Below are positions 31,773 through 54,027 of a DNA stretch of 64,000 bases, piece after piece (position 1 is the stretch's first letter; every line of letters starts with the position of its first letter). Both the position numbers and the translations under genes were made by a program. The notes below the pieces were generated by a model. That model was given only the letters and a program-made list of their open reading frames with translations, ran no database searches and was not told where the DNA came from. This stretch comes from Candidatus Saccharimonadota bacterium (GTDB lineage Bacteria; Patescibacteriota; Saccharimonadia; Saccharimonadales; SZUA-47), in assembly GCA_016700315.1 (NCBI GenBank), contig CP065013.1, forward strand, positions 193,449 through 257,448, in the 5' to 3' direction.

Positions 31773-32062
31773 TCGGCGCTCGGCCCCCTTGGGGCCTAGC
31801 TTTACCGCCCTACTTTCTTGTGCTGACAAGAAAGTAGGCAAAGAAGCAGCCCCTGGCTTCAGGCTCTTTATTGTCTCGTAGTCAAAAACGACAATGCTCT
31901 GACAACTCAGAAGATTAGTGAATTACACTAATCTTCTTCAAACACGTCACTCACTCTAATTGTCGTTTTGACACTCGTCAATCAGGAGCCTGAAGAAGGG
32001 GGTTAGCTTCTAGATACGATTACTATGGCGGCTATACGCTGGTAGTTACATATTAATTACAG
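31773..32062 (-). repeat. structured repeat element, copy A (reverse orientation)
   Basis: Positions 31773-31998 are the reverse complement of 53803-54027 with 3 substitutions and 1 indel by eye. The vestigial 5' module overlaps the stop codon of the 32046 gene. Confidence 0.85.
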
Positions 32063-33347
32063 TAATGCCCGAGTCGGCCTTTTCGACGCCTACAGCTTCA
32101 ATTTTTGCTTGAAGCCTGCCGACCATATCCTTATATTCAGCTATTTTATCTTCTTTTTCAAATACTCCTGTTACCCCCAACATAGCCCCTATACCCATAC
32201 CGAATATACTATTTTGCAATAGACTTTTTAGGTCAATTCTATTATTTACATCCAAGTGTTCAAAGAATGACCTAACAGCAACCGCAACTTCGTCTGAATA
32301 GCCTGAATCTCGTTTGGCGGCATCTAGAGAGCTATTAACAAGCGTTCTAAAACTTGTTGCATCGTACGCATACCTATTTTCATAATGTTTTGGTTGTGAA
32401 ATTCTGTTTTCATCTCCATCACTAAAACTCGTTGATTTTCCTCCAATAATTGGAACTTCGACCGTATTACGCATCACAATAGTGTAAGCCATATGCCAAT
32501 ACTTATAGGCAAAGGATTTGACATCTATATCACGCTTACCGTCAACTTGTGTTACGGCGGGCTCGATACTAATTCCGGCTGCCTCCATAGCAAACCGAAA
32601 GGCCTTACCATGCGGCTCCCGTTCCCATCCATTAGCTGACTCATCTTCACCTTGGGTGGGTACAAACATATAATCGTGCAGGTCTTCACTTTTTCGGAAA
32701 TAATGCCGCATACCATTTAGTAGTCTAACTGCACTATCGATGGATATTGTTGGCCTATCTCCAAGTAGTTCAACCTCAAGCATTCCCATCTCGTCCAGCT
32801 CGATAGGATGCATAGTACGATCAGTCAGTAAATCAGGCTGCCACGAAGGTAAGGATCCTTCTGGCATTAATGAAAAGTGATGCTCAACTCCTTCGAGATC
32901 TTTCACTGCTTGCTCAGTTGCTGTGTGGCCTTGAAAAAGAAAGGAATTATAGCTTGCATCGTCGAAAGGATGCCTAGTAACTACCTGAACCCGATCAGCC
33001 CTCAAAGTGTAATCTTTATAACTACCACCTGCTACCCTATCCACATTTGGTCTTATTCCCCCCTGAACAGTCGTTGTCGCACCCCAAGAATCATTACCAC
33101 CATTAACTTTTTCAACAACTTCATATTGCCCTGCAAGAGCATTATCTAGTTTATGGTTTAGCTCGAATTGCAAGCTAGACACCCACCTGTCGCCATTTGT
33201 TAACTCGACTCCCCAAGCCCTTACCTGATCACCATACTTATCGTCTACATATCCCTGAGCAATATCAGCATACCTACCTGCCCTAATTGCCATATCAACA
33301 CCTGACTCACCTACTGGAACATTTAATCTCTCTCTCAGTTCTCGCAT
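32046..33347 (-). CDS. hypothetical protein (orphan, 434 aa from the preferred start)
   Basis: Long ORF. The ATG at 33347 has SD AAGGAG 8 nt upstream. No recognisable family or motif. Confidence 0.6.
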   Translation of the reverse strand: MRELRERLNVPVGESGVDMAIRAGRYADIAQGYVDDKYGDQVRAWGVELTNGDRWVSSLQFELNHKLDNALAGQYEVVEKVNGGNDSWGATTTVQGGIRPNVDRVAGGSYKDYTLRADRVQVVTRHPFDDASYNSFLFQGHTATEQAVKDLEGVEHHFSLMPEGSLPSWQPDLLTDRTMHPIELDEMGMLEVELLGDRPTISIDSAVRLLNGMRHYFRKSEDLHDYMFVPTQGEDESANGWEREPHGKAFRFAMEAAGISIEPAVTQVDGKRDIDVKSFAYKYWHMAYTIVMRNTVEVPIIGGKSTSFSDGDENRISQPKHYENRYAYDATSFRTLVNSSLDAAKRDSGYSDEVAVAVRSFFEHLDVNNRIDLKSLLQNSIFGMGIGAMLGVTGVFEKEDKIAEYKDMVGRLQAKIEAVGVEKADSGITVINM

Positions 33348-33478
33348 ATTTTTTCTCCTTTGACAGACAATATACACCATTCCATAAGGATAAACAAAAG
33401 CACTATTCTACATCTTCACATCAACTAACTATCACCCAGCATGAGCATTTTTAACTCACTGACCCCTACAAAAAATGT

Positions 33479-33500
33479 CGACATTTTTTGCACACGTATT
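33479..33500. promoter_or_regulatory. perfect 22-bp palindrome (operator-like)
   Basis: CAAAAAATGTC|GACATTTTTTG, about 130 nt upstream of the 32046-33347 gene. Confidence 0.4.
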
Positions 33501-33545
33501 CAATTTATGTTGCATTTACCTGCAAAAAATATAATTGGTTTAAAC

Positions 33546-33826
33546 CGTTAACATGCTGAAAAAGCATATTAACCACTATGAGAAGCTATTACCCCTTCTG
33601 AGAACTCATGAGGAATTGAATGCCAAAAACACAATTAGAGCGAGTGACGTGTTTGAAGCCAATGTATTCATTGGCAAGTTGTCAGAGCATTGTGTCTTTT
33701 GGCAATGAAAGCTTCAAGAGTTCGAAGCTGGGGCTGCTTCTTTGCCTACTTTCTTGTCAGTACAAGAAAGTAGGGCGGTAAAGCTAGGCCCCAAGAGGGC
33801 CGAGCGCCGAAACAGGGAGTTAGATA
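33546..33826 (+). repeat. structured repeat element, copy B
   Basis: Shares the 5' hairpin module, the conserved loop sequences and the 3' module CTTCTTTGCCTACTTTCTTGTCAGTACAAGAAAGTAGGGCGGTAAAGCTAGGCCCCAAGAGGGCCGAGCGCCGAAA. Confidence 0.8.
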
Positions 33827-33870
33827 CTAGAAGTTTTTCTTTGCTCCTGGCTCATAACTCTTGGCTCTAC

Positions 33871-36717
33871 TTATCGTTCAATTCGGAGCGTTGTTGGGTC
33901 TTCATTCTGCGCTTGTGGTTGTTCGGCAACGATCTTCTCAACCGGCTCTTCGACCTTCTCTAGCTGCTCCAAAACAGACGGCTGATGGCTGTTAGCCGAT
34001 GGCTGAGGACTGCTGGCTGTTAGCTGCTGGCCAGTGGCCGTCAGCTGCTGGCTGTTTTGGCTGGTGGCCGGTGCCTGTTGGCCGTTAGCTAGCGGCTGTT
34101 GGTTGTTGGCCGTTGGCTGTGCTGGCTTCTTACCGAACCCAGTCTGCGGAGGCGTAAAGGGTTGCTGCCGTTTAGCCAACCAATCATCAAGGAAAGAACC
34201 TCCCGGTTTTGGCGCTGCTGGTCTAGCAGGCGCTGGCCCAGCCGCCCCCAAAGGTCCGCCTACCGGCTTTTCAGGGGCCTTAAGACGCTCAAATATCTCT
34301 TCCTCTACAATTCCGCGTGGACGGCCATATTTAGCGTAGGAGAGCTGTTTAAGCGCGTCACCGAGTTTCTTGTTTGGCGTTCCGAGCTGTGGCAGCGCTG
34401 CCATACTAAACGGCATACTAGGCACACCCCTTATCAGCATTCTAACAATGGCATTGTAGTTTGGCGTCCGCTGTAAGTCGTTAATATCAAAGACTGGCGC
34501 AAAATACTTAGCCAAAAACTCCGCATCGTTTGTACCGACACGGAAAGAAGTTATAGTACCAATGTTACCAAACACGGCGTCTCGGATTTCTTCGCTTAGC
34601 TGTGTGGTAAACTGGTTAGCCACAATTAGGCTCAAGCGGTACTTCCTAGCTTCACTCAAGATAGTCGCAAATGAATCTGTCGAGAAGTTTTGGAACTCAT
34701 CAACGTAAAGACTGAAATCAATACGATCACTCTCGTCAATATTGGCCCTGCTCATAGCTGCTGCCTGGAACTTCATCACAAAAATCATTCCCAAAAGCTT
34801 ACTGTTAAGGTCCCCCGTCCTACCCTTACTCAGATTTACCAGCAAAATCTTTTTACTGTCCATCACCTCTCTTAAGTCAAATGAGCTCTTCACCTGACCG
34901 ATAATATTACGCATCATCTCGTTACTTAAGAAGGCTCCAAACTTACTCACAACCCAGCTTGTAACCTCGCCGGATTCATTAGATCTCTGGGCATTTGGCC
35001 ATTCCTTAGTCCAAAAGTCGAGTACTGTCTGATCTTTTGTATATTGAAGCTTTTCGCGCATAAAATCAGAATCGACCAGAAGCTTGGGAATATCGATAAA
35101 TGTCCCTCCCTTAGGATCGCTCATCAGTAGCAGTGAACACATCCTAAATATATGCTCAAATCTAGGCCCCATGAAACCCTGTCGGTTCGGATCGTACAGC
35201 TTATACAAAATATTGATTGCTTCTTGGATCAAAAAGTCCTTTTGATCTGAGCTAGTGTATTCGAACAAATTCAACCCTAAAGGGAAATCCATCTCCGCCG
35301 GACTAAAGTAAATCACATCTTCAGTTCTCTCTTTTGGTACCATGGCTAGTAGCCGTTCGGCCGTATCACCATGTGGATCAATAAAGGCAAATCCGTCGCC
35401 GTTGAGCATATCTTGAAGAGCCAAGTTTTCCAGAAAAGTCGACTTACCTGTACCAGTTTGTCCAACAGCATAAAGGTGACGGCGACGATCCTCTGGGTCT
35501 AAAACGATTCTCTTCTTTGCACCTCGGAATATGTTATAGCCTAATACCAATCCTTGATCACTCATAGTACGCGGGCCGTCGACCTGCTTACTATCTTGGC
35601 GCTGAAGCTGTGTAGTCGGCATATTATTCTGATCTGGGAAATGGAACAGTGTAGCCAATTCAACTGAGTTCAGGATATTCTTGTTATTCTCTGGCGGGAA
35701 AAACCTCATGATATAGGCCGTCACAAAACTATCAATATCTTTAGCTGGTGAATACTTAAAACCGTTCTTACCCTGAGCGTTAAACAGAGCAAAAGAAGCC
35801 ACTATGCTATTGATGATTGAATGAGCCTTAGAAGAAATATTTGAAGACGCCACTACCCGCACCAACACCTCATAGCCTGGATGTTTGGCTTTTTCTTCCA
35901 TCGACTCTGCCAACCCAACATCAACTGCCGAGCCCTCTTCTTTTTTGCCTCCTCCATCGCCGCTCTTGTCCTCAGGTGGCTTCCAGGCAGCAGAGAACAG
36001 CTGCTTGACCCACCAAAAGGCTAGTTCCCCACCTGTCTTTTTCTTATTCCCTTTACGTTTCTTACCGGCCTCTGCAACTGTCGTTTTGCGCCAACCCTCG
36101 TGTGCTGGCCTAATCAGAATCTGTATGCCAGCACCGTCCTCCTTATCAAGGCTAGATAAGGAGTTTAGTATCGAACCCATCGCATCGCGCTTGATCTCGT
36201 TGTAGGTAGCGATAGGGTATGCAAACTGTTCTTTTAAGGTCAGCTCTCCCCCCATCGTGCCGGTAATCTTACCTACTGGGCTAAAGATATTGTGCTCTTC
36301 GACTTCTTCGATCCTAGCAGAAGGATAGGCACTAACAATTGCCTGGTGAACTGTATCTGCCAAAACAACAGGAACAGCAGTATAAAAATGCACGAAACCT
36401 TTAATGCCGACTATCTCAAATGAAAAATGACGTTGTCCATATATTTTACTCTTAAACCCTTTAGTGGCAGTAGCTGAGATAATCTCATAAAGTATCTCGG
36501 CCTTACTTATCGCTTCATTAGTTACGTCCCTTATATCTCTTGAGCCGACTTCCGTGTCTTCACTTAGAGGTGGTAAATGAATTATGAAAGTTACCATCTT
36601 GAGCCCACGCTCAAAATTTTTACTTTCTCTGGCAGTCTTGCGCATTCTAAAGGCTATAGCCAAGCCAACACCGCAAAGTGCTACCAAAAGTCCAAAAACA
36701 ATAATTGCCCAGCTCAC
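33871..36717 (-). CDS. membrane-anchored VirD4/TraD/TraG-superfamily (type IV coupling protein-like) ATPase
   Basis: 948 aa with an N-terminal TM, Walker A GQTGTGKST, Walker B LYVDEFQNF followed by RKYRLSLIVANQ, and a Q/P/A-rich disordered C-terminus. Confidence 0.6.
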   Translation of the reverse strand: MSWAIIVFGLLVALCGVGLAIAFRMRKTARESKNFERGLKMVTFIIHLPPLSEDTEVGSRDIRDVTNEAISKAEILYEIISATATKGFKSKIYGQRHFSFEIVGIKGFVHFYTAVPVVLADTVHQAIVSAYPSARIEEVEEHNIFSPVGKITGTMGGELTLKEQFAYPIATYNEIKRDAMGSILNSLSSLDKEDGAGIQILIRPAHEGWRKTTVAEAGKKRKGNKKKTGGELAFWWVKQLFSAAWKPPEDKSGDGGGKKEEGSAVDVGLAESMEEKAKHPGYEVLVRVVASSNISSKAHSIINSIVASFALFNAQGKNGFKYSPAKDIDSFVTAYIMRFFPPENNKNILNSVELATLFHFPDQNNMPTTQLQRQDSKQVDGPRTMSDQGLVLGYNIFRGAKKRIVLDPEDRRRHLYAVGQTGTGKSTFLENLALQDMLNGDGFAFIDPHGDTAERLLAMVPKERTEDVIYFSPAEMDFPLGLNLFEYTSSDQKDFLIQEAINILYKLYDPNRQGFMGPRFEHIFRMCSLLLMSDPKGGTFIDIPKLLVDSDFMREKLQYTKDQTVLDFWTKEWPNAQRSNESGEVTSWVVSKFGAFLSNEMMRNIIGQVKSSFDLREVMDSKKILLVNLSKGRTGDLNSKLLGMIFVMKFQAAAMSRANIDESDRIDFSLYVDEFQNFSTDSFATILSEARKYRLSLIVANQFTTQLSEEIRDAVFGNIGTITSFRVGTNDAEFLAKYFAPVFDINDLQRTPNYNAIVRMLIRGVPSMPFSMAALPQLGTPNKKLGDALKQLSYAKYGRPRGIVEEEIFERLKAPEKPVGGPLGAAGPAPARPAAPKPGGSFLDDWLAKRQQPFTPPQTGFGKKPAQPTANNQQPLANGQQAPATSQNSQQLTATGQQLTASSPQPSANSHQPSVLEQLEKVEEPVEKIVAEQPQAQNEDPTTLRIER

Positions 36718-36748
36718 TTCTTATTTATTCCTTTGACTCTTGTCCTAT

Positions 36749-37138
36749 TCAGGAAGTAGCCTTCGATTTTATAGTCCTATTATAGCGTTTTTTAATGTAA
36801 TCCGCTCGTACTTTATTGAGCTCATTAGTCTGAGCGTGTGGGTTGCCTATGGTCTGAGCTACTACCTTTTTAGCTCGAGCAACCCATTCGTGCTCAATCA
36901 GGTCAACGTCTTCCGCTGCTAAATCATCATCGCTAGGTGCCGCTACTGTTGAGGAGGCCATGGTTACGACATCATCAACCGCGCTACTGCCAGGTATCAA
37001 GACTGGACTTGCAGCTGAAGTTGTTGGACCAACGGGTGTAAGTTCGGGCACTCTTAAATCGCTCTCACCTCTGATCTCAGCACCAGTTACTTCTGGGCTA
37101 GATTCAAGTATTTCTGGCAGTATTTCTTTATTATCCAT
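36749..37138 (-). CDS. hypothetical protein
   Basis: 129-aa ORF in the same operon-like string as the ATPase. Confidence 0.45.
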   Translation of the reverse strand: MDNKEILPEILESSPEVTGAEIRGESDLRVPELTPVGPTTSAASPVLIPGSSAVDDVVTMASSTVAAPSDDDLAAEDVDLIEHEWVARAKKVVAQTIGNPHAQTNELNKVRADYIKKRYNRTIKSKATS

Positions 37139-37186
37139 ACAAACTTTATTCTATCACTTAACTGATTGAAATGACACCGTTTCGAA

Positions 37187-37525
37187 CTATTTTTTTAACC
37201 TTCTAAAGTAGAAGACTAGTACCGATACGAATATTACCAACAAGAAGCCTGTGCCAAAATTAAGCTGCCCTAGAGATGACATCACGACTAGTAGACTCAT
37301 CGAAAGCCCTGACGTAAAAGCAAAGAAAATGTGTATTTCGGGTCCAAACTTTCCATATGCCAACTTAAAAGATAAGATATAAGCAACCAAGCCGACGATA
37401 ATGCCTATCAATATCACCGGTACTGTAAGCAGGATTATTGGCGAGTTCTCTGGGCTGGTATTCAGTACTAAACCAGTTAAGAGCGCCACCAAGACCAACA
37501 GCAATAAGCCTATTTTTTTATGCAT
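37187..37525 (-). CDS. hypothetical polytopic membrane protein
   Basis: 112 aa with 3-4 hydrophobic helices. Confidence 0.5.
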   Translation of the reverse strand: MHKKIGLLLLVLVALLTGLVLNTSPENSPIILLTVPVILIGIIVGLVAYILSFKLAYGKFGPEIHIFFAFTSGLSMSLLVVMSSLGQLNFGTGFLLVIFVSVLVFYFRRLKK

Positions 37526-38156
37526 ATAGCTTAGTTTATATTAAATAACCGCCTTTAGTGAAGGCGGTTATTTAATTAGTTTTTTAAAAGGAGACCTGAG
37601 TAGCCGTGGAAGTAAATGCACTGGACTAAATTGTTAAAACTATTGCAGCGCTTACTTCCCTCGGCTTTGACTGACCGCTTCATAAACTTTGAGAGTTTAC
37701 GAGGCGTTATATTCAGCTAATTTTGCTTGTTTTTGTTTTAGCTGAATAACTGTATATTATAGGATCGTGTTAATAATGTCAATAGCTAGTGTCATTTAAT
37801 TATAGTAGTTATTATAACAACATTACAGATTATAAATAACGACGCGTATATATTTTTACCTGTTAATATTGTTGTTATAATTATTACGTTAATTGTAGGT
37901 GATTCCGGGTGTACTATCGGGCTTTAGCAGACTAATCAGGAGCACTTTCATAAACATTAAAATACTAAAATACTACAATTTTTTTGTATAAATTTTTGTG
38001 CTTTTGCTAAGATTTTTAATACCATAAGCCAACATTTTTAGTATCAAAACGTAGAAAAAACCAGCACTTATTAATTGGTACTTGGTGGTAATTTAAAATG
38101 ATTTTCAAACTTAATTAGCGTATTCGAACAAACAAAATATCATCTACCCACCTTGA

Positions 38157-38912
38157 CTAATTTTGGTAAAATCTTCGGCTAGCCGCCCAGCCCTCTGCTC
38201 TGACACGGCCCTGTTTAACAAGAACTTGGATATAATGTGACACCAACCCCGGACTTAAGTTTAGCTTTCTAGCAATCCGTGGCACTTGGCTTCCAGAGTT
38301 TGACTTAATATACTCCTCGATTTTAGTTAAATTATTGATCATGCGTTTTTTTCTTGCCTGTACACCTAATTGAGATAGCTCGACTGACCGTAGGCTTGTA
38401 TAGTACCTAGCTGCTATTGCTAACTCCTCTTCGGTAAGCGCGGCCACAGCGGAAGGTAAGCCATTAGTGTCATCAGATGGGCTCTGTACAGCTTGGGGTT
38501 GTTTTGGCTCCTCCCGTATCTCAGGGGTTTGGTTGGCCATAGTCGGTGAATTTTCTTCTATTTTTTGTGGCAGTGGTGATGGGGGCAACACTGAGCTAGG
38601 GTTTTCTACTACATCGTTAGGATCGAACTGTTCACCAATCGGCTGCTGTATACTGACATCAGGGTTCGGTACAGGAAGCGTTTCTACCAACGTCTCAGTT
38701 GTTATGCTTGGTTTGGGCATATCGACAGGCTGATCCACAACTATTGGGGCATCGCTTTTGGCTTGGTCTGGGATAGTCGGTTCTGACAACTGCGGTTCAA
38801 TTTGCTCAACATCGCTACCTACTATTCCAGTGGCGGCAGCTTCAGGTTGCAGCGGATCTGCTCCGCCAGCACCATCATCATTACTGCCAGCATCATTATT
38901 TTCATTATTCAT
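38157..38912 (-). CDS. putative winged-helix DNA-binding protein with acidic/proline-rich N-terminus
   Basis: C-terminal segment IEEYIKSNSGSQVPRIARKLNLSPGLVSHYIQVLVKQGRV resembles a MarR/ArsR-type wHTH. TACAAT lies 8 nt upstream of the ATG and there is no SD. Confidence 0.5.
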   Translation of the reverse strand: MNNENNDAGSNDDGAGGADPLQPEAAATGIVGSDVEQIEPQLSEPTIPDQAKSDAPIVVDQPVDMPKPSITTETLVETLPVPNPDVSIQQPIGEQFDPNDVVENPSSVLPPSPLPQKIEENSPTMANQTPEIREEPKQPQAVQSPSDDTNGLPSAVAALTEEELAIAARYYTSLRSVELSQLGVQARKKRMINNLTKIEEYIKSNSGSQVPRIARKLNLSPGLVSHYIQVLVKQGRVRAEGWAASRRFYQN

Positions 38913-39064
38913 TTGGTTAAATTGTACTACCCTTTACCATTTTTGTATGCTATTTATACGGTTTATAAACACAAATACTGTTGTTATTTTTTGGCTATCT
39001 CTAGCCTAAGAACAGTTTAATAATAAAGGCTGTTATTTTTACACAGCTATTTATAAAAAACTTG

Positions 39065-39093
39065 TTGACAATAGTGTTTAAGCTTACTAATAT
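39065..39093 (+). promoter_or_regulatory. near-consensus promoter TTGACA-17-TAATAT
   Basis: Read directly. No ORF follows for about 550 nt. Confidence 0.55.
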
Positions 39094-39099
39094 AAGGTT

Positions 39100-39245
39100 A
39101 GCACTTGAATAAAAAAAGTGCTCAAAAACAAAAACGACCCCCTATAACAACCGTTTCTCGCAAGCGGTTGTTCCATAAGAAAACAAGACAAAAACTACAA
39201 TCAAAATAAGGATCCGGCTACCACGAATACGCCGGATCCTTTAAA
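39100..39245 (+). ncRNA. candidate small RNA or 5' leader
   Basis: Downstream of the promoter are three hairpins: AGCACT/AGTGCT, ACAACCG/CGGTTGT and GGATCCGGC/GCCGGATCC. The last is followed by TTTAAATTT. Confidence 0.3.
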
Positions 39246-39292
39246 TTTACGGACACCCAACTTGCCCGCCAATCAGCGCGCTACAAGCATCG

Positions 39293-39570
39293 AGTATCAA
39301 GTATGAATACACAGATAGTAGTAAGTAGTTAGTAGTAAGTAGCAAGCGTAAAATTCTAAATTCTAAACTCTAAACGAAGTAAGTATCACGTATTACGTAT
39401 CATGTATAAAGTATGAATTTCCCCTCAGTAAACAGTCATCAGTAAACAGTTATCAGTATTCTTCCGTAAACCATAAACTATCAACTATCAACTATCAACT
39501 CGTCCCTAGTCCCTAGTCCCTAGTCCCTAGCCCGTAGCCCTAATCACTCTAACCTCTAACCTAACCGCTG
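39293..39570. repeat. mosaic heptamer array
   Basis: Runs GTAGTAA/GTAGTTA, ATTCTAA x2, NNGTATN x5, NNNCAGT x5, TATCAAC x3, TAGTCCC x3 and TCTAACC x2. Confidence 0.9.
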
Positions 39571-41333: not shown

Positions 41334-41553
41334 ATTAATATGCCCGTTGGCATATTAACTACCATGAGAAGCTGAGTCCCGCTTTCCTTCCTTGCTGACT
41401 AGATGTTGTAGGTAATGACGATGATTTGTCATTGCTACAATTCAGATAGGTCAAGAAGGAACGAGTACGGGTCGTTTCTTTGCCTACTTTCTTATTGACA
41501 TAAGAAAGTAGGGCGGCAAAGCTAGGGCTGATAGGCCAAGCGCCGAAATGGAA
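41334..41553 (+). repeat. structured repeat element, copy C (short variant)
   Basis: Perfect 5' hairpin TTAATATGC/GCATATTAA, then CTGAGTCCCGCTTTCCTTC, a different central hairpin, and a 3' module whose stem carries a compensatory change. Confidence 0.75.
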
Positions 41554-41657
41554 TTAGAGAAGCTAATAAACCTTAAGAAATTTGCCCCCAAACTGTTGCA
41601 CCCCAAATCCATCTCTGTTATAATAACTATCAATAAATATGACGCGAGGACAGAACA

Positions 41658-42426: not shown

Positions 42427-42429
42427 TAA

Positions 42430-44635: not shown

Positions 44636-44848
44636 TACTGAACCTCCAAACTTAAAGCAATAAGGCCACGTCCGATTATGCCGATTTGGCTACCTTTAAT
44701 CAATAACATATGGTCGGGTCGAACATACCCTACACGAACTGCTTAAAAGCTTGATGGAAGACTATTCCAGCACTGTTATCGTACTCGAAAAACTTAGAAA
44801 CGCTTGCAACACTAAGGCTAGTACCAGATTAGTAAAAAACTTAGTGTA

Positions 44849-45973
44849 TTAAGCCACTTCAGCTAATACACGCACAGGTGTTAATTGTTTTGCAGCTTTT
44901 TGAATACGTTGGCGATTACGAATTGCTTCTATACTACGAACGGCAATGACTTCCTGTTTCTGCGTAACTGATCCATCACAGTTTTGTTGTAGAGTCGATA
45001 AGTAGTTCACACCGATTTCTTCGGGTCGGTCGTGCCAACTAACGTGTGTATGTAAATCACTCTTTCCGGTTGCGTCTGCACCTTCACCGCACATCACAGC
45101 AAAATAGGTTTGTGCGTTATGCTTCTTCATTAAGCGTTGAGCCAATCGCATAGTACCACCACCAATTACCCAGTCATCTACGAATAGAACACGAAGCTGT
45201 TCGCCATCTGCAAGTTCATTGCCACGCTGCATGCCGAACCGCTTACTAGCTTCCACAATTTCATCAACCTTTTCCTGAAGCACATCAGGGTCTTCTAACT
45301 TACTGACCCTTGCAAAGTGTAAATTACCATCTAGGGTTGGGAATGGCTGACCATCTCTCGTCTGCTGCCAAGCAGCGTGCATAGCCAAACCGAACAACCG
45401 TCCACCTCTATCACAACCAATAACAATGTGTGGCTGTACATCTTCCATAAACTCAAGCACTGGTAATGCCATCTCAGGAAGGTCTTCTGGTTTTGTTGCT
45501 CCTAAGTCAAGATAACCACCAAATGGCTGTTGTACATTTCCGCCATTTAGCAATGAAGCGGGAAGCTGACTGATGAGCTGATTCTGCCTGCTTTGAGGCA
45601 TTTGTATAAAGTTCTGAATGGCAAGCTGTCCTAGAGTACGACCTAGCAATTCAGACTTTGGCTTAATAATTTCGTATTGAGAGAGCTTGGATTCACTTAT
45701 ACAACTCAACTCAGGATAGTATTCTAACTCAGGATAGTATTCTTTTTGTATTAAGTTCTCTTTGGGTAGCTGGATACTGTTGAGGTTTAACTTTTCTTCG
45801 TACCGTTCTGGTCTAATTGAGTAAGGATCGTCATAGTACTTAATTATGTAATTATTTTTGTCTTCCAGTGTATGTGGAATGAGGAGTTCATGTTTTGGCA
45901 GTTCTTTAATACGCCTTTCACTGAACGGGTCATATTCACCAAGCAAGGCTTCTAACCTAAACTCTTCTTCCAT
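44849..45973 (-). CDS. phosphoribosyltransferase-domain protein with unknown N-terminal region
   Basis: The C-terminal half has the type-I PRT motif VLFVDDWVIGGGT. The N-terminal ~180 aa are unassigned and include an 18-bp tandem duplication (EYYPEL x2). Confidence 0.55.
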   Translation of the reverse strand: MEEEFRLEALLGEYDPFSERRIKELPKHELLIPHTLEDKNNYIIKYYDDPYSIRPERYEEKLNLNSIQLPKENLIQKEYYPELEYYPELSCISESKLSQYEIIKPKSELLGRTLGQLAIQNFIQMPQSRQNQLISQLPASLLNGGNVQQPFGGYLDLGATKPEDLPEMALPVLEFMEDVQPHIVIGCDRGGRLFGLAMHAAWQQTRDGQPFPTLDGNLHFARVSKLEDPDVLQEKVDEIVEASKRFGMQRGNELADGEQLRVLFVDDWVIGGGTMRLAQRLMKKHNAQTYFAVMCGEGADATGKSDLHTHVSWHDRPEEIGVNYLSTLQQNCDGSVTQKQEVIAVRSIEAIRNRQRIQKAAKQLTPVRVLAEVA

Positions 45974-46116
45974 AATCTGTTGATTGTAACATAATTCAAC
46001 ACTTTATGCAAGAGCATAATTAAACGTACTGGAACTGGCAAACAACAGAGGTACGAGATAACTCACAAATTAAATGAACCCTGGGACGGGTTCATAAAAT
46101 CTGGAAATATCGATCG

Positions 46117-46192
46117 TGGTCGGGGATGCGAGACTTGAACTCACGACCTCACGACCCCCAGCCGTGCGCGCTACCAACTGCGCCAATCCCCG
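46117..46192 (-). tRNA. tRNA-Pro(GGG)
   Basis: The reverse complement folds as a cloverleaf: CGGGGAT acceptor, anticodon loop CTGGGGG, T-loop GTTCAAGTC, encoded CCA. Confidence 0.85.
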
Positions 46193-46377: not shown

Positions 46378-46405
46378 AAAAACCTCCGAAATTACGGAGG
46401 TTTTT
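46378..46405 (-). terminator. bidirectional hairpin terminator after rpmB
   Basis: AAAACCTCCG-AAATTA-CGGAGGTTTT. Confidence 0.7.
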
Positions 46406-46437
46406 AAGTCATAGTGACGTTGACTATAGCCTATAGT

Positions 46438-46626: not shown

Positions 46627-46696
46627 AAGTCTTATTATAACCCAAAAACACCTTACAGGTCAACCATTTGAGCAACATTCAATAGACATGGGCAGC

Positions 46697-46806
46697 GATT
46701 AGGTTAGAGTGATTAGGGTCTAAGGTCTAGGGTCTAAGGTCTAATTCATACATGATACATAATACTACCCAGTGTTTAGATTTTCTCCTCCTCGTTCATA
46801 GTTCCG
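46697..46806. repeat. mosaic heptamer array, reverse orientation, with promoter-proximal module
   Basis: The reverse complement reads GGAACTATGAACGAGGAGGAGAAAATCTAAACACTGGGTAGTATT...GTATGAATTAGACCTTAGACCCTAGACCTTAGACCCTAATCACTCTAACC. Confidence 0.85.
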
Positions 46807-46857
46807 GGTAAGCTCCTTCCTTCGCGAAAACACTCATGGCAAGCTATAATGTAGCAA

Positions 46858-47481
46858 ATGGATAACCTACTACAGATCAAAGATGCCGTACCCATCGTCT
46901 TAGCCCTAATAATCTCTGCTGCGCCCCATGAAATGATGCATGCTTTCACCGCCTACAAGCTGGGCGACGATCTAGCTCATTCTCATGGCCGTATCTCTCT
47001 TAACCCCATGCGCCACATTGACCCGATATTAACCATAGCTCTGCCCTTTTTTAGTCTAGTGTTAGGTGGTGGCATTATTATGGCGGCTAAGCCAGTCCCC
47101 ATTAATACCTCACGTATCCGTGGCGGCGAAAATGGCCTTGCCTTAACTGCTCTGGCTGGTCCCCTAACCAATTTAGTCTTTGCTGGTTTGCTTTCTCTGC
47201 CACTAAACATGATGAGCCACGGCGGCCCAATTTTTGAGTTCACTAAGATTCTCTTCCTGGTTAACATCGGACTTTTTGTATTCAACATGTTGCCTATCCC
47301 ACCGCTAGACGGCTCACGGCTCGTCTACGCTATTGCTCCTCGCCCCGTTCAAAGAGTATTTGAGATTATAGAATCTCAGGGAATATTCTTTTTCCTAATT
47401 CTAATCATGATATTCGGGACTGCTATCTACCCAGTCATCGACAAAGCTCAAGCCCTACTAATTAACTTCTTTATCCGCTAA
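46858..47481 (+). CDS. site-2 protease (peptidase M50) family membrane metalloprotease
   Basis: HEMMH (HExxH) in TM1 and NMLPIPPLDGSRL as the second motif. TATAAT lies 7 nt upstream of the ATG and there is no SD. Confidence 0.8.
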   Translation: MDNLLQIKDAVPIVLALIISAAPHEMMHAFTAYKLGDDLAHSHGRISLNPMRHIDPILTIALPFFSLVLGGGIIMAAKPVPINTSRIRGGENGLALTALAGPLTNLVFAGLLSLPLNMMSHGGPIFEFTKILFLVNIGLFVFNMLPIPPLDGSRLVYAIAPRPVQRVFEIIESQGIFFFLILIMIFGTAIYPVIDKAQALLINFFIR

Positions 47482-48116
47482 ACTTTAGGCTCTAGGACCA
47501 CCAGTTTTGCCTGTTCCGCGCCTAGTTCTAGATTTTTTAGTTTGGCAGCGTTGCTTCTTGGAGATTCATCGACAGTCATACCTAGAGTATTCAAAGCTTC
47601 CTCTAAAGTCGGAGTTGGCATTTCGGTCTTAATGCCGCTGACAGTAAAGTATGTAGGAATCACAACACTTGGCTCCAATTTCTTGATTACTTTTAGCGCT
47701 CCCTCTGCATCTAACGTGAAGCCGCTGCCTCCAACAGGCACCATCAAAACATCAACATCCCCGATTTCTTCCACCTGTTGATCGGTGATATCTGGGTGGA
47801 TATGCCCCGCCATAACCACGTTTCCATCAAGGGCCGTAAACTTAAATACTGTGGCAGTTTTTTTACCTTCTTCATCACGATGACCTCTTACACCAACTGC
47901 TTTTACAGAAATGTCGCCGACTTCATATTCACCCGGCACAGAGAGTAGCAGTCTACCGCCATCGGCAACCGGAATCGCAACATCGGTCTGTACGCTTACA
48001 TCATCAGCTTTAGTTATAGACTTCTTACCCTGCACGGCCAAAGTATCATCAACTATTATCCGAGTTTTCTTAGTCTCGAGTCTAATAGCATTAGCGCCGT
48101 AGTATTCAATATCCAT
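47478..48116 (-). CDS. MBL-fold hydrolase-like protein (degenerate)
   Basis: 212 aa. The N-terminus MDIEYYGANAIRLE...IIVDD resembles the UlaG/UPF0173-type beta-lactamase fold, but no clear HxHxDH is seen. Confidence 0.4.
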   Translation of the reverse strand: MDIEYYGANAIRLETKKTRIIVDDTLAVQGKKSITKADDVSVQTDVAIPVADGGRLLLSVPGEYEVGDISVKAVGVRGHRDEEGKKTATVFKFTALDGNVVMAGHIHPDITDQQVEEIGDVDVLMVPVGGSGFTLDAEGALKVIKKLEPSVVIPTYFTVSGIKTEMPTPTLEEALNTLGMTVDESPRSNAAKLKNLELGAEQAKLVVLEPKV

Positions 48117-48127
48117 TTTTTGCCTTT

Positions 48128-48763
48128 CTATTTAGAAAAAATTTTATTTTTATCCATTACGATCTGTTTTTTGGATTCTTCTAGCTGGCTCCAAAAGCGG
48201 TCTCGCACTTGTGATCGATAAAGTGCTTCATCGGCGGTAAAACTGGCATATCTTAGCTCAACTCCCTCCGACTTTTCCATTTCTGCGACCAAGTTGGCTA
48301 GTTTAGTTGGGTTTACATCACCAACCACCAAAACATCTATCGGCGCCGTCTCATCCCTAGTTAAGTGTCCCGAGTAAACTACCGCGTCAACGTTGCCAAC
48401 AGATCGCCACTTACGAGCATCGTTACTAGTGGTGGTGACTGCCGCCAACTCCTCACCTAACTCTTTTGTGGCTTCACTGGTCTCAGCCTCGCTATCTGGC
48501 ACAGATACGGCGCTGCCAAAAATCGCATTCAGTGATTTATAGAATTCGTAATCTTTATTGACCTGATAATACAGCCTGTTCTCAGCCGTATCCGAACTTA
48601 TCAAACCAACGCTTAGCAAATTAGATAATTCGCGACGAACAGAGTTAATTTGTTCATCTATCTTACGAGTTATTTCTCGGACATAAAAAGATCGCTCAGG
48701 ATTACCATAAAACAGGTACAAAAGCTTCACTCTTGTTTTCGAACCAAACAACTGTTCAATCAT
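48128..48763 (-). CDS. winged-helix transcriptional regulator-like protein
   Basis: The N-terminal segment FGSKTRVKLLYLFYGNPERSFYVREITRKIDEQINSVRRELSNLLSVGLI is typical of an ArsR-like wHTH. Confidence 0.5.
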   Translation of the reverse strand: MIEQLFGSKTRVKLLYLFYGNPERSFYVREITRKIDEQINSVRRELSNLLSVGLISSDTAENRLYYQVNKDYEFYKSLNAIFGSAVSVPDSEAETSEATKELGEELAAVTTTSNDARKWRSVGNVDAVVYSGHLTRDETAPIDVLVVGDVNPTKLANLVAEMEKSEGVELRYASFTADEALYRSQVRDRFWSQLEESKKQIVMDKNKIFSK

Positions 48764-48984
48764 TATCTTGCCCTCCTCATAATCCTATTGTATCAAAAAA
48801 AGGTTCACCATACATGCTGTTTAGTCATAACGAACACACAAATTACATCATCTGCCTTAATAAACAGACCAAAAGGCCCACCAGCCATCAACCAGCTTGC
48901 CTACCCAATTCTCTCATACCCCCCTATTGCGGCCTACAAAACCGTGTTCCTATGATCTGCTATAGCAGATCATAGGAACACGGA

Positions 48985-49764
48985 TCAAATAAGGTAGGAG
49001 AGGGCAGATTCGGCTGAGTCGAACCAGCGAATGTTGGGGTTTCGCTTGAACCAAGTCATCTGGCGCTTAGCTAGCTGATAGTCCCGAGTCGCAAAGGCCG
49101 CTTTTGCTTGATTCAGGTCAATCTCACCTCTTAGGTAATCAGAAAAAGCGCGATACCCCGGTGCGTCTAGCGCTTTAGCGCTTGGGTATTTTTTGTGAAG
49201 CATCGCTACCTCCTCAACAAACCCATTTTCGACCATCTTGTCTACTCGCACAGTCAATTTTTGTTTCAGCATTTCCCTCCCCGGATTCAGGCCAATAATA
49301 AATGTCCCTTCTCTGAGCGGAGATTTTGCATGTTCTGCCTCCGGCGCGCGGTGACGAGGATTAACCGAATCTCTGCCACCGCTTGCACCAGCGAAGTCGT
49401 AATCAAATATGACAGAGTCAACATACAGACCACTGCCGCCTATCATGATAGGCAACTTCCCGCGTTTGTTGATGTCTTCGATTGCTTGTAGTGCTAACTT
49501 CTTAAAATCCGCAACCGTAAAGGGCTCGTCTGGCTTAATCACGTCTATCAAGTGGTGTCGGACAGCGGCCTGCTCTTGCCGGCTGGGTTTAGCCGTGCCT
49601 ATGTCCATGTACTTATAGACTGTACGACTATCGGCACAAATGATCTCGCCATTTAATTTTCTGGCTAGCTCTATAGCTAGCGCTGTCTTGCCGCTGGCCG
49701 TAGGCCCAACGATGACTAGTAGATGGTATTTGGGAGTTGGCATTTGGAGGTTTCCGTGTAGCAT
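48985..49764 (-). CDS. miaA: tRNA dimethylallyltransferase
   Basis: GPTASGKT P-loop, DSRTVYKYMDIGTAKP and GGSGLY motifs. An alternative start is at 49743. Confidence 0.85.
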   Translation of the reverse strand: MLHGNLQMPTPKYHLLVIVGPTASGKTALAIELARKLNGEIICADSRTVYKYMDIGTAKPSRQEQAAVRHHLIDVIKPDEPFTVADFKKLALQAIEDINKRGKLPIMIGGSGLYVDSVIFDYDFAGASGGRDSVNPRHRAPEAEHAKSPLREGTFIIGLNPGREMLKQKLTVRVDKMVENGFVEEVAMLHKKYPSAKALDAPGYRAFSDYLRGEIDLNQAKAAFATRDYQLAKRQMTWFKRNPNIRWFDSAESALSYLI

Positions 49765-50121
49765 CTACTGCCTTCCATCTACCAAGGTTGGTTGCCAAAT
49801 TAGCTTATCAATATCAATTTGGTATGATTCAGCTTCGCCAAACACTTCAACCCCTTCGGCTTCAAGCATCAACTTTTGGGCTTCGCGCCCGCCGTGATAG
49901 CCGCTCGCTAGGCCACCTTTTTTATTAACCACTCGGTGCCAAGGTAGATCTTGCGGCCCAAAATGGGCTATCCCGCCAACTATTCTCGATGCTCTAGCGT
50001 TTCCGCACAACGCCGCTATTTGTCCATAAGTCATCACTCTGCCTGCCGGAATTTGCGCAACCAAAGCGTAGACTTTTCTTGCAAATTCTCCTCCCGGATG
50101 ATCAGCTCCATTAAACTTCAT
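49765..50121 (-). CDS. alkyltransferase-like (ATL) protein, MGMT family without the acceptor cysteine
   Basis: The MGMT DNA-binding domain carries PWHRVVN where active methyltransferases have PCHRV. Confidence 0.65.
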   Translation of the reverse strand: MKFNGADHPGGEFARKVYALVAQIPAGRVMTYGQIAALCGNARASRIVGGIAHFGPQDLPWHRVVNKKGGLASGYHGGREAQKLMLEAEGVEVFGEAESYQIDIDKLIWQPTLVDGRQ

Positions 50122-50124
50122 ATT

Positions 50125-50763
50125 CTAATTATTATGTCGCATCGAACCTAGCGTTAAGCTTGATAGTAAATGTGGCACTTCAGTCAGATTAGATGCTACC
50201 ACAGCTTCCCGGGATAGGTTATGTCCATTGTGATTATGTGATGGATACTGAATCGAAATCCCAACCAATCCGGCTCCAATCGCCGCATTTACATTATGAT
50301 CAGCGTCATCTATGGCGGCAAAAGCTCCAATTTTTCTATACGTCGAGACTTTGGATGTCATTTTGTGATCGCCATTATACTCGGCTGTGTGTACATCGCT
50401 AAAGATTCCCGGAAAATGTAATTTTACAGACTCTATAGTTATAGCTTTATGCGTAGGAGGCCTAGCAGTAACTATTTGGAGATCATAGCGCTCAACTAGA
50501 AGGGTTAAACCTTCAGTTGCAGCTTCGTAAGCAGGCGTTTCTATACTTTTTGTAAGTGTATACTGGTTTAGCAGTTCAGTAAATTCTTTGGCGGTCAACC
50601 CACTATCGGGGTAGGCCTCATCATAATGAAATTTACCTTCAATCGCTTTAACGGATAGCAGGTCAATGCCGTGTTCGTCATGCATCCAATTTCTAAATGG
50701 AATATCAAATGGCACAACACAATCATCGTAGTCTACAGCTATAATCTCTTTATTTTTTGCCAA
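50125..50763 (-). CDS. HAD-superfamily hydrolase (5'(3')-deoxyribonucleotidase-like)
   Basis: N-terminal IAVDYDDCV fits HAD motif I (DxD). Confidence 0.5.
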   Translation of the reverse strand: MAKNKEIIAVDYDDCVVPFDIPFRNWMHDEHGIDLLSVKAIEGKFHYDEAYPDSGLTAKEFTELLNQYTLTKSIETPAYEAATEGLTLLVERYDLQIVTARPPTHKAITIESVKLHFPGIFSDVHTAEYNGDHKMTSKVSTYRKIGAFAAIDDADHNVNAAIGAGLVGISIQYPSHNHNGHNLSREAVVASNLTEVPHLLSSLTLGSMRHNN

Positions 50764-50827
50764 TTAAATCCTCAACAACTATTAGATTATACATATATTA
50801 ACAGATTGCAGAATCATAAAGATATAT

Positions 50828-52690
50828 TTAGAGCGAAGCATGTGACACTCGAGACTTAGCCTCATTTTTGACACTTCTAATGAAATTCTCTGCTGGATAC
50901 GCCAATTCCTGGCGGCCCTCCAAGGCCAAATCGGCTCTCACTCTAGGCGTCACCTCGCCCGATTCAACCTCTTTTTCGCCAATTACGATAGAGTACGGCA
51001 CTTTCCAAACTTCGGCGGCGCGAATCTTCTTGCCGACGGACTCACTAGAATTGTCCAGATAAGCACGCACGCCCCTCTCTTTGGCCAGACTGACTAGCTT
51101 TTCTGCAAACTCTACTATCCCATCGGTCTGGTTTACCGTAATGACCCTTAGCTGTTCTGGAGCACACCAAAGCGGGAACTTGCCAGCTGTATGCTCAATG
51201 TAAACGCTCAAAAAGCGCTCGATACTACCCAGTGTTGCACTGTGGATCATGACTGGCCTAGCGGCTTGCCCTTCTTCATTCGTGTACTCAAGCTCAAATC
51301 TTTCAGGCTGAACAAAATCAAGCTGTACTGTTGCCAATTGGTGCTCTCTACCAATTGCATCGGTCACCATAAAGTCTATTTTTGGCCCATAAAACGCCGC
51401 CTCGCCCTCTTGCTCGAAGTACTCCAGCTTATTGGCAATTACAGCGTTTTTAAGTTGGGCCTGTGCTGACTCCCAGAGTTTCTTGTCGCCCAAATAAGCA
51501 TCACTTTCGTCTCGGTAGCTTAGCCTTACTCGCAAGTTCATTCCCACTATTGAATATAATTCATCGGCACACTCAAGTAGACTGTTTATCTCGGTTTCTA
51601 TCTGATCAGGTCGGCAAAAAACATGGCTATCATCTTGGGTTAGCGCCCTAACTCGGCTCAAACCGCCGAGCTCACCCGTTTTTTCATCGCGGTAATCAGT
51701 CGTTGTCTCCAGGTAGCGTACGGGCATTTCGCGGTAACTGCGCTGCTGTGACGCATAAATCCTGGTGTGATGCGGGCAGTTCATCGGCTTCATCACTAGC
51801 TCATCGCTTGTTTCTTGGCTCTTTACCAAAAACAGCTCATCGCCAAACTTGGCCCAGTGGCCGCTTTTTTCGTATAAGTCCTTTTTAGTTATGTGAGGCG
51901 TCCACACTTTTTGGAAGCCTCTTTTTTCACGCAGCTCATTCGAAAGCTTAGAAAGCTCCTCCCGTAAGACGGTTCCACGTGGCGTAAACATCGGCAGCCC
52001 AGAACCAACTAAATCCGAAGTTACGAACAAGTCATATTCCACACCCAAACGGCGGTGATCCCGCTTCTTGGCTTCCTCGAGCATATTTAGATACTGTCGA
52101 AGCTCCTTGTCTGACGCAAAAGCCACTCCATAGAGCCGCTGCATTTGAGGATTTTTCTCATTGCCACGCCAGTAAGCGCCAGCCACACGCATCAACTTAA
52201 ACGCCCCGACCTTATCTGTCGATTCTACATGAGGCCCGCGGCACAAATCAGTAAAATCACCATTGCGGTAAAAACTAACCTCGGTAATTGTCTTTGTCGA
52301 TGCAGCCCCTGAAATCCCAGCAGGTAGCCCCATCATTGCCAAGTCCAAATCTTTGGCTAGAGTTGTACCTTCTCTTTTTAGGTCGTTCAAAAGCTCAATC
52401 TTGTATGGCTGCCCTGCCTTGTCTGCCCAGGCCAAAGCTTCATCAACAGGCATCATAAACTTTTCAAATGCTTGCTTTTCGGCGATAACTTTTCGCATTT
52501 CCGCCTCAATTTTGTCGAAATCGTCCTCACTTATCGTCACGCCAGGCACGTCAATATCATAGTAAAAACCGTTTTCCACCACCGGTCCTACCCCAAGCCT
52601 GGCCTCTGGCCAAAGCTTAGTTACAGCAGTAGCCATTATGTGCGCTAGGCTATGTCTCATAGGGTATAGTTCGTCTTCTGGATTGCTCAT
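50828..52690 (-). CDS. thrS: threonyl-tRNA synthetase
   Basis: 620 aa with the second additional domain HSLAHIMA, class II motifs and a C-terminal anticodon-binding domain. SD AGGAGG. Confidence 0.95.
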   Translation of the reverse strand: MSNPEDELYPMRHSLAHIMATAVTKLWPEARLGVGPVVENGFYYDIDVPGVTISEDDFDKIEAEMRKVIAEKQAFEKFMMPVDEALAWADKAGQPYKIELLNDLKREGTTLAKDLDLAMMGLPAGISGAASTKTITEVSFYRNGDFTDLCRGPHVESTDKVGAFKLMRVAGAYWRGNEKNPQMQRLYGVAFASDKELRQYLNMLEEAKKRDHRRLGVEYDLFVTSDLVGSGLPMFTPRGTVLREELSKLSNELREKRGFQKVWTPHITKKDLYEKSGHWAKFGDELFLVKSQETSDELVMKPMNCPHHTRIYASQQRSYREMPVRYLETTTDYRDEKTGELGGLSRVRALTQDDSHVFCRPDQIETEINSLLECADELYSIVGMNLRVRLSYRDESDAYLGDKKLWESAQAQLKNAVIANKLEYFEQEGEAAFYGPKIDFMVTDAIGREHQLATVQLDFVQPERFELEYTNEEGQAARPVMIHSATLGSIERFLSVYIEHTAGKFPLWCAPEQLRVITVNQTDGIVEFAEKLVSLAKERGVRAYLDNSSESVGKKIRAAEVWKVPYSIVIGEKEVESGEVTPRVRADLALEGRQELAYPAENFIRSVKNEAKSRVSHASL

Positions 52691-52698
52691 TTTTCCTC

Positions 52699-53169
52699 CT
52701 AGTTATAACTCTGTACTCGTCTTGGTTCAGGCCTGTTTTCAGTTTCAATGAAGCCGCTTTTTATCATCTTAAAAGCTTGCGTCAGCATATCTGTTTCCTC
52801 ATCGTCCTTACCAATCGTTGCTATTTCACTCTCTTCAATCCAGCGTGATTCATTGTGATCTTCCGGGTTTAACTTTGGCTCAACACCTTCATCTAGGTAA
52901 CAGAAGTAGCCGACTTCTATACAGAATTCGCCATTCATATAGCAAGTAAAACTGTCTACTGGGCTACCAACTCTGACATCTATACCAAACTCTTCTCGCA
53001 TTTCCCTCTTTAAAGCTGCCTGAGGTGTTTCACCTGGCTCAACATGACCCCCAGGTACTTCGTAGCGGTTTGGAAAAATCTTTTTTGTAGATGCACGTCT
53101 CGCCAAAAAGATTCGTCTATCTCTGACAATTAGCCCTACAATCATTATATTACTGTTGTGGTCGCTCAT
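52699..53169 (-). CDS. NUDIX hydrolase
   Basis: Nudix box GGHVEPGETPQAALKREMREEFGI. Confidence 0.85.
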   Translation of the reverse strand: MSDHNSNIMIVGLIVRDRRIFLARRASTKKIFPNRYEVPGGHVEPGETPQAALKREMREEFGIDVRVGSPVDSFTCYMNGEFCIEVGYFCYLDEGVEPKLNPEDHNESRWIEESEIATIGKDDEETDMLTQAFKMIKSGFIETENRPEPRRVQSYN

Positions 53170-53474
53170 AGCCCCTCCTTAACTAACTCACCACCGACTC
53201 GCTTATATTCTCTACCTTCGTTTATTGTCAGCTTTGCCATAATAGCTTTTTCCAAATCCCCGCCTAAAATTGCCGCTAAACCTAGAGTTTCTATGACTAC
53301 GTCGGCGGCTTCTTCTAATACCTCGGGGAGCAACTTCCCGCCCTCCCATGCTTCGGTTAGTTCATTTAGCTCACCACGAATCCTACCTAGTTTTTTCCTC
53401 GGGTCAGTGGTGTCAAAGCCTTGATTAACCATGTTATCCCAGACTCGTCGCTGCATATCTGCTACTTCGCCCAT
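53166..53474 (-). CDS. MazG-like nucleotide pyrophosphohydrolase
   Basis: 102-aa all-alpha protein with an ELNELTEAW...EEAADVVIE pattern. Confidence 0.6.
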   Translation of the reverse strand: MGEVADMQRRVWDNMVNQGFDTTDPRKKLGRIRGELNELTEAWEGGKLLPEVLEEAADVVIETLGLAAILGGDLEKAIMAKLTINEGREYKRVGGELVKEGL

Positions 53475-53705
53475 ACAAAACTCCTTCTAAAAATAAATAA
53501 ACACGCTGTTATTAGCGTGTTTCGGGTCAGCCAGTTAGCTGACGGTTCCACCGAAAACTTTTCACTCATCAAGCGCGCGTTCCCTAGCTCGCTATCTATC
53601 AGGTTAAGCTCCGCGGTTAGTGATTCCGCCTCAATGCTTAAGATTATTGTACCACAGTAATTAATAGTAGCAGAAAATAGTGAGCGAAAGTTGGCCAATA
53701 ATCCC

Positions 53706-54027
53706 GTTAATCTGACTGAGCATATCAACTACTCTGAGAAACTGAGTCCCGCTTTCCTTCATTCCTAACTAGTTTCTCTAGAGGCTAGATGCTGGCTCCC
53801 ATTCTTCAGGCTCCTGATTGACGAGTGTCAAAACGACAATTAGAGTGAGTGACGTGTTTGAAGAAGATTAGTGTAATTCACTAATCTTCTGAGTTGTCAG
53901 AGCATTGTCGTTTTTGACTACGAGACAATAACGAGTCTGAAGCCAGGGCTACTTCTTTGCCTACTTTCTTGTCAGCACAAGAAAGTAGGGCGGTAAAGCT
54001 AGGCCCCAAGGGGGCCGAGCGCCGAAA
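53706..54027 (+). repeat. structured repeat element, copy D (best-preserved long form)
   Basis: 5' module, a ~140-nt long hairpin (53804-53942), a 12-bp perfect hairpin CTACTTTCTTGT-CAGC-ACAAGAAAGTAG, and a GGCCCC-AAG-GGGGCC hairpin. Confidence 0.85.

Follow-up and report, generated by a model that had tools for sequence, protein, structure and literature searches.

Near-identical inverted repeats 22 kb apart in a Saccharibacteria genome: a folding dispersed repeat family, exchange between copies and a block found in one orientation

Introduction

Inverted dispersed repeats are common, and a closely matched pair raises the question of whether the DNA between its members can flip or whether the likeness of the two copies has another origin. 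The question is posed here by a 64,000-nt stretch (the window; its first letter is position 1) of contig CP065013.1 in assembly GCA_016700315.1, a 988,272-bp metagenome-assembled genome of a Candidatus Saccharibacteria (TM7) member of the candidate phyla radiation (CPR), in which the proteins of the window are QQS65123-QQS65149. Two repeats, which we call A and B, lie in opposite orientations at the ends of a 22-kb segment. An initial annotation, made from the letters of the window, had called the pair a recent duplication or one homogenised by gene conversion, and an obvious substrate for homologous inversion of the block between. We find that A and B belong to a family of four modular, strongly folding copies in the window, that comparison with a second strain supports gene conversion between them, and that the block appears in the same, ancestral orientation in every assembly and related genome examined.

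Results

The repeat pair

The pair, first placed at 31773-31998 and 53803-54027, is confirmed, and those coordinates are right to a few bases. In our own alignment, 31769-32001 matches the reverse complement of 53798-54029 over 233 columns with 5 substitutions and one 1-nt indel (97.4% identity), the longest exact runs being 130 and 74 nt. A repeat search of the window returned the same match as two neighbouring pieces, 84 and 151 nt long (31769-31852 with 53946-54029 and 31851-32001 with 53798-53948, both 98% complementary), shifted by one base at the 1-nt indel. The indel had been reported correctly; within the narrower limits we count 4 substitutions, where 3 had been claimed. A match of this quality in 64 kb is beyond chance. 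Because both copies recur at the same sites on one independent 224-kb contig (GCA_029781765.1; L003 and L039) and again in short-read contigs of other samples, the pair is not an assembly artefact.

A family of four modular copies

A search of the window with a covariance model of the family (R1), run with its filters off, finds four copies and no more (Table 1). They are modular and 200-310 nt long. The 5' end is a palindromic hairpin, GTTAATATGCC-N3-GGCATATTAAC, degenerate in A and B; the motif GAGAAGCU is common to all copies. Next come a closing helix (GAGAAGC/GCUUCUU), a second helix (CCCC../..GGGG) and a variable foldback interior, and the copy ends in a 3' module with the order UUCUUUG, a 13-bp hairpin (CCUACUUUCUUGU/ACAAGAAAGUAGG), GCGGYAAAGCUAGG, a small hairpin and GAGCGCCGA, the composite second hairpin of the module terminating in GCGCCGA.

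The interiors define subfamilies. A and B have a common 135-nt foldback, C has a diverged form of it (72-88% identity, with compensatory changes), and copy D and a copy on the metagenome contig L027 have other interiors. Copy D retains the 5' hairpin, the closing helices and the 3' module around an interior that is short and different. Copy B is a hybrid, in which the opening 62 nt correspond to the 5' segment of D/L027-type copies and everything after them is of the A type. The description of the other two family members as much more diverged than A and B is thus apt in part and fails for copy C, which is identical to A at 98% over its outer 81 nt and lies inverted only 1.9 kb away.

Table 1. 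Coordinates of the repeat copies, the cassette and the bracketed block in the window
Feature	Position	Strand	Remarks
Block bracketed by A and B	32002..53797		21.8 kb; orientation apparently fixed and ancestral
Copy A	31761..32060	- (sense)	R1 114.6 bits; predicted fold; 5' motif degenerate and overlapping the 444-aa ORF at its stop codon
Copy A, 3' double-hairpin module	31761-31855
Copy A, foldback interior common to B	31856-31998
Copy B	53705..54045	+	Solo hybrid copy; R1 110.8 bits
Copy B, 5' segment	53720-53781		D/L027 type
Copy B, foldback and 3' module	53782-54037		A type, 97-98% to A
Copy C	33547..33838	+	Inverted relative to A; R1 111.8 bits; predicted fold
Copy D	41335..41565	+	Shortest member, between comM and infC; R1 97.4 bits; predicted fold
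A-ORF444-C cassette	31761..33838		About 2.08 kb; flanked by the 3' ends of two host genes that converge on it
444-aa orphan open reading frame (ORF)	32046..33380	-	Between copies A and C; hypervariable between strains
Upstream region of the cassette ORF	33381..33546		Conserved; contains the palindrome AAAAATGTCGACATTTTT

The predicted fold

Minimum-energy folds calculated independently for A, C, D and one of the L027 copies (L027_1) agree in layout, with z-scores of -7 to -11. From 5' to 3' they show the 5' hairpin, the GAGAAGC/GCUUCUU and CCCC../..GGGG helices, the foldback, hairpin 1 and hairpin 2. In the 3' module, for which 11 distinct sequences are available, 98.5% of the cells are paired and 10 of the 25 pairs show changes on both sides. 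None of 500 shuffles matches the observed values, and controls in which the pairing was slid are only 38-52% paired. The module therefore carries compensatory base-pair changes of the kind expected of structured RNA in general. Its non-Watson-Crick cells comprise 7 G-U and 0 A-C, which argues that the fold is kept for one strand, as RNA or as single-stranded DNA; we infer that it would act in one of these two molecules.

Single copies have no terminal inverted repeats, the 5' end (CCGTTAATATGCC...) not being complementary to the 3' end (...GAGCGCCGAAAT), and inverted ends arise only in the two-copy cassette described below. D and L027_1 each have a motif resembling GAGAAGCT close to either end, and at the 5' end this motif forms the closing helix. 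Promoter and terminator scans around all copies gave nothing above shuffled expectation.

Exchange between copies

The strain represented by GCA_029781765.1 differs from the window by 1.1% overall (98.9% identity), and the 232 nt that A and B share can be compared in both. The two A copies differ at 3 sites and the two B copies at 9, whereas A and B differ at 5 sites within each strain, and A of the window differs from B of the second strain at 4. A and B of the second strain both read GCACC where both copies of the window strain read GCGCC. At 4 sites within 21 nt where B of the window differs, B of the second strain has the A-type state. Paralogues thus share derived states that the orthologues of the other strain lack, as in concerted evolution. 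Paralogues that resemble each other more than orthologues do, and that have strain-specific states in common, point to gene conversion, and we regard exchange between A and B by this route as supported by the comparison. The remaining copies show related patterns: in contig L038 the hairpin loop of copy D is replaced by the A/B/C-type version, and whether copy C has T or C at one paired column (column 52) goes with A and B in the window strain alone.

The A/B duplication itself is older than the split of the two strains, since both copies sit at the same loci in a strain that is 1.1% different. Of the two origins first offered for the pair, homogenisation is thus borne out (B orthologues differ at 9 sites and paralogues at 5), and recent duplication is not.

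Orientation of the block

The housekeeping content ascribed to the block is correct: it holds comM/YifB, infC-rpmI-rplT, rnpB (RNase P RNA), thrS and miaA, and beside these RNase H, tRNA-Pro, ogt, a NUDIX gene, the orphan 444-aa ORF and a DUF8128/VirD4-like ATPase that is conserved widely across Saccharibacteria.

Plus-strand GC skew is -0.186 in the left flank, -0.127 in the block and -0.103 in the right flank. Its sign does not change at either copy, contrary to what an inversion would leave. The second strain aligns to window positions 22046-43337 in one collinear alignment (21.3 kb), and thrS, NUDIX, copy B, tRNA-Val, NlpC/P60 and TGT follow on its contig in window order, so that both junctions lie on one contig. 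Five independent sources span junction A (L001/L010, L003, L012, L024 and the window) and four span junction B (L019, L025, L039 and the window), all of them parental. In the sister species L048 (GCA_964476795.1; ATPase 75-79% identical), the ATPase adjoins an 861-aa gene and gyrB-gyrA has the same relative orientation, as at junction A; in the more distant species L044, a homologue of the 549-aa right-flank gene lies upstream of thrS on the same strand, as at junction B. That related species share both junction orientations argues that the present one is ancestral, and by these comparisons it appears fixed in all the assemblies and related genomes examined. The pair had been proposed as a ready substrate for inversion. 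Its exact runs formally make it one, and the inversion itself finds no counterpart, whether in skew, in synteny with relatives or in the assembled junctions.

One contig departs from the window near copy A. L038 leaves the window sequence after 32133, about 90 nt before the end of the 444-aa ORF, and continues as unrelated, foreign-looking DNA that is rich in AT and includes a tRNA. We regard this contig as a probable chimera and do not count it as a rearrangement.

The cassette formed by copies A and C

Copies A and C form the outward-facing inverted ends of a cassette that encloses the 444-aa ORF and about 165 nt of sequence upstream of it. The ORF has no Pfam match, and its AlphaFold model is unusable (pLDDT 34.6). 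Three homologues appeared in a word-indexed search and four clusters in a full profile search (5.8e9 and 1.84e9 proteins); one homologue (40% identity, L005) stands without flanking repeats. The ORF is also a mismatch hot spot between the two strains, with 41 differences in 32500-33000, where 34-41 kb has about 0 per 500 nt. At the site of the cassette the sister species has 139 nt and no 444-aa ORF. This gap (L048 4875-5013), between the convergent ATPase and 861-aa genes, is itself a long hairpin of heptamer repeats (GTGATTA, GTGGCTA, GTGACGA and others).

The arrangement occurs a second time. In L027, two copies that likewise face outward frame an unrelated orphan ORF of 268 aa, and this cassette too has convergent genes on its two sides (HtrA-like and PrmC-like). 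Upstream of the 268-aa ORF lies sequence that is homologous in patches to 33381-33546 of the window; the two ORFs, both orphans, are not similar. No direct repeat that could be a target-site duplication is found outside the A-C cassette.

Distribution of the family

The family is restricted to one species-level clade. An 18-base core motif had only 4 chance matches, all in unrelated phyla, among 185,579 species-representative genomes; in the metagenome collection it had 4 matches, 3 of them real (the orthologues of A and B, plus L027). Rfam 15 gave no match at the gathering threshold, and for all four copies a cut-off relaxed to E of 10 added nothing but noise. Phage and plasmid collections searched by BLASTN with copy B yielded no match, and neither did viral contigs scanned with two motifs. 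The sister species has no family copy. In relatives whose ThrS is 73-76% identical, the genes of the block stand in the same order and there is no family copy either; the comM-infC spacer of these distant relatives is 155-182 nt long, and in the window, where it contains copy D, it is 543 nt. The family is undescribed: its sequence is new, and its kind (dispersed, modular, structured intergenic repeats) is known.

Candidate mobilising enzymes

Pfam scans covered most ORFs of at least 80 aa in 29-58 kb and the larger ORFs elsewhere in the window. Among these there is no invertase or recombinase gene adjoining the repeats, and the only DDE enzyme is an IS30-type transposase (12662-13684; 340 aa, HTH_38 and rve domains), 18 kb away and the sole transposase in the window. 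It belongs to an IS30-family insertion sequence (IS) at 12660-13709, about 180 nt from the 5S rRNA gene. We rejected it as the mobilising enzyme, since the inverted ends of its element (AAGTGCAACAC) are unrelated to the family. The layout of an ORF followed by a structured RNA prompted us to consider TnpB with omega-RNA, an IS110 bridge RNA, a retron and a diversity-generating retroelement; we rejected these readings, as no RuvC/OrfB, DEDD or reverse transcriptase domain was found among the ORFs scanned and the variable sites are not adenine-specific.

Discussion

The explanation that we consider on balance probable is that A and B both belong to a lineage-specific, non-coding, modular and strongly folding dispersed repeat family, kept alike by conversion, with no inversion fixed. 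The family would behave as a non-autonomous mobile or dispersed element, whose copies occur singly in intergenic DNA (B and D) or as outward-facing inverted pairs around an orphan ORF with its conserved upstream region. The near-identity of A and B would reflect their common interior subfamily together with short-tract, non-reciprocal homologous recombination across 22 kb. A reciprocal exchange between them would invert the block; such a product is fixed in none of the sampled genomes and is seen in no assembly.

Several points weigh against this explanation or parts of it. The case for conversion draws on two strains and about a dozen sites. Much of the covariation in the 3' module stems from one diverged copy, L027_2 (L027 2396-2484, 50.6 bits), and the alignment of the module was fitted to the covariance model from few independent sequences. 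A search of the metagenome collection for the recombinant-junction pattern gave 0 matches, a result of low power, as very little of this organism is represented there and just 3 contigs are true members of the family. No transposase, recombinase or target-site duplication is tied to the family, and the sampled strains all carry copies at the same sites, so that recent movement is not demonstrated.

How far, then, do other explanations account for the same observations? If the 22-kb block were actively invertible by recombination between A and B, both orientations should coexist in the population. RecA pairing in Escherichia coli needs roughly 25-50 nt, and the exact runs of 130 and 74 nt are well above this; the conversion signatures, moreover, show that A and B do pair. 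However, the skew has the same sign and a similar size inside and outside the block, the five sources at junction A and four at junction B include no recombinant junction, the second strain is collinear over 21.3 kb with both junctions on one contig, sister and more distant species have the same orientation, and there is no invertase gene among the window ORFs scanned. We therefore hold active inversion of the block to be very improbable indeed. A smaller invertible unit, the A-ORF444-C cassette with 1.9 kb between its 81-nt, 98% identical inverted ends, would be favoured by the closeness and near-identity of the repeats and by contig L002 (JGI 3300045333; 9005-9051), which runs from the 3' end of the 444-aa ORF through an A-type module into 7 nt of the outer flank of C (AAACAGG), where it ends. 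Seven nucleotides at a contig end inside a repeat are typical of an assembly-graph artefact, which is the more likely cause; the other side of L002 carries the reference linkage, and L001/L010, L003, L012 and L024 are all in the reference arrangement. A flipping cassette is in our view very unlikely.

The likeness of A and B could also be owed to youth or to constraint. A duplication or transposition too young to have diverged, with no part played by gene conversion, would fit an A/B identity of 97-98%, which is near the 98.9% between strains. Both copies are, however, present at the same two loci in strains about 1.1% apart and so predate their split, and youth does not yield a strain-specific substitution shared by A and B or B orthologues that differ at 9 sites where paralogues differ at 5; we think this origin quite unlikely. 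A better contender, if still an unlikely one, is that the copies are genes or cis-elements of a functional structured RNA (a 3' untranslated region, a leader or a small RNA) selected at each site, so that RNA constraint keeps A and B alike. The compensatory changes and the G-U-only mismatches on one strand are what such an RNA would show, the architecture is conserved though the interiors differ, and in A, D and L027_1 the sense strand is that of the gene upstream. Against this, the copies are not consistently oriented to neighbouring genes (neither C nor B has a gene of its own strand upstream), the orthologous sites of the sister and distant species have no copies, the interior of one subfamily bears no relation to that of another, B mixes two types, and the scans around the copies gave no convincing promoter or terminator. 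Constraint alone also leaves the strain-specific states shared by A and B unexplained. We therefore prefer a dispersed repeat family with conversion between its members.

The solo copies, the cassette pairs, the hybrid copy B, the empty site in the sister species and the parallel in L027 together suggest that the family is a dispersed, non-autonomous and probably mobile element, found as solo copies or as the ends of gene cassettes. A more specific proposal, which we offer tentatively and think rather unlikely as it stands, is that the repeats are the structured ends of an undescribed CPR mobile gene cassette. Two outward-facing, hairpin-rich ends of 250-300 nt and a shared upstream control region would frame interchangeable, fast-evolving orphan genes; an enzyme encoded elsewhere would recognise these ends in the form of single-stranded DNA or RNA; and solo copies such as B and D would be footprints or independently moving ends.

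Several known systems resemble the family in part. BOX elements of Streptococcus pneumoniae and the enterobacterial repetitive intergenic consensus (ERIC) sequences, or intergenic repeat units (IRU), are likewise short and non-coding, with conserved end modules and a variable middle; they too have very stable predicted folds, lie between genes in either orientation and are confined to single lineages. The present family has no sequence similarity to them, has four copies in 64 kb, occurs in a CPR phylum and, unlike them, also forms inverted pairs around orphan ORFs. Miniature inverted-repeat transposable elements (Correia in Neisseria, Nezha in cyanobacteria) are small dispersed foldback repeats that vary in presence between related species and stand as solo copies alongside longer units. 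In contrast to these, the ends of a single family copy are not inverted repeats, and we found neither a target-site duplication nor a cognate transposase in the window, where the IS30-type element has unrelated ends. IS200/IS605 elements with their palindrome-associated derivatives (PATEs), and repetitive extragenic palindromes (REP) with their associated tyrosine transposases (RAYT), share with the family the lack of terminal inverted repeats and of a detected duplication, subterminal hairpins and a strand-asymmetric conservation of the fold; they differ in that no Y1 transposase, TnpB or RAYT is present among the window ORFs scanned against Pfam and in that the 5' and 3' hairpins of the family are unlike each other. 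Inversions and concerted evolution between rRNA operons or IS copies, finally, also involve inverted repeats above the minimal pairing length and clear non-reciprocal exchange, but A and B are only 233 nt long and none of the genomes or contigs shows an inverted arrangement.

As an inversion substrate the A/B pair is ordinary, the arrangement being stable. It is of more interest as a clean, small case of concerted evolution between copies 22 kb apart, with no crossover product, in the reduced genome (about 1 Mb) of an episymbiont. The mobile elements and non-coding RNAs of Saccharibacteria are poorly known, and here an undescribed family with a well-supported fold frames hypervariable orphan genes in this group. 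Were the cassette proposal true, it would offer reduced genomes a route by which to acquire and swap lineage-specific genes. Only the link between the family and orphan-gene cassettes in a CPR bacterium might reward more study.

Other features of the window

A and B are not the only inverted repeat pair in the window, since a second dispersed repeat family has inverted copies as well. It consists of tandem heptamers (TAGACCC, AACTATC, GTCCCTA and others), is present in both orientations and lies at 28829-29172, 39285-39542, 46694-46805, 56504-56663 and 63726-63988; the segment 46694-46766 is inverted relative to 28846-28918 and 63875-63947 (88-89%). The intergenic DNA of the window holds many further period-7 arrays.

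To the left of copy A, 29274-31755 (+) holds ORFs of 637 aa (PKD/DUF11-like) and 195 aa that overlap by 20 nt in different frames. Jointly they match the single 861-aa gene of the sister species (L048 5014-7599), and the gene is therefore frameshifted or split in the window. Within the block, L038 (JGI 3300045392) is without a 1.4-kb segment that corresponds to window 44718-46117 and holds a 374-aa phosphoribosyltransferase-like gene.

The rRNA genes (5S, 23S, 16S) occupy 13891-22170 on the minus strand, while the tRNAs of the 16S-23S spacer, tRNA-Ala (19051-19127) and tRNA-Ile (19206-19282), are on the plus strand. The 23S match is 3116 nt long against a model of 2925 positions. One LAGLIDADG endonuclease ORF (14706-15194) lies within a sub-threshold group I intron match (14593-15346), and another (20060-20449) adjoins a group-II-D1D4-1 match (20458-20539). 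Further along, the 3' part of tRNA-Asp and the hairpin that follows it (59367-59446) are duplicated 334 nt downstream (59701-59781) at 85-94% identity, a partial duplication that resembles the footprint of integration at a tRNA gene.

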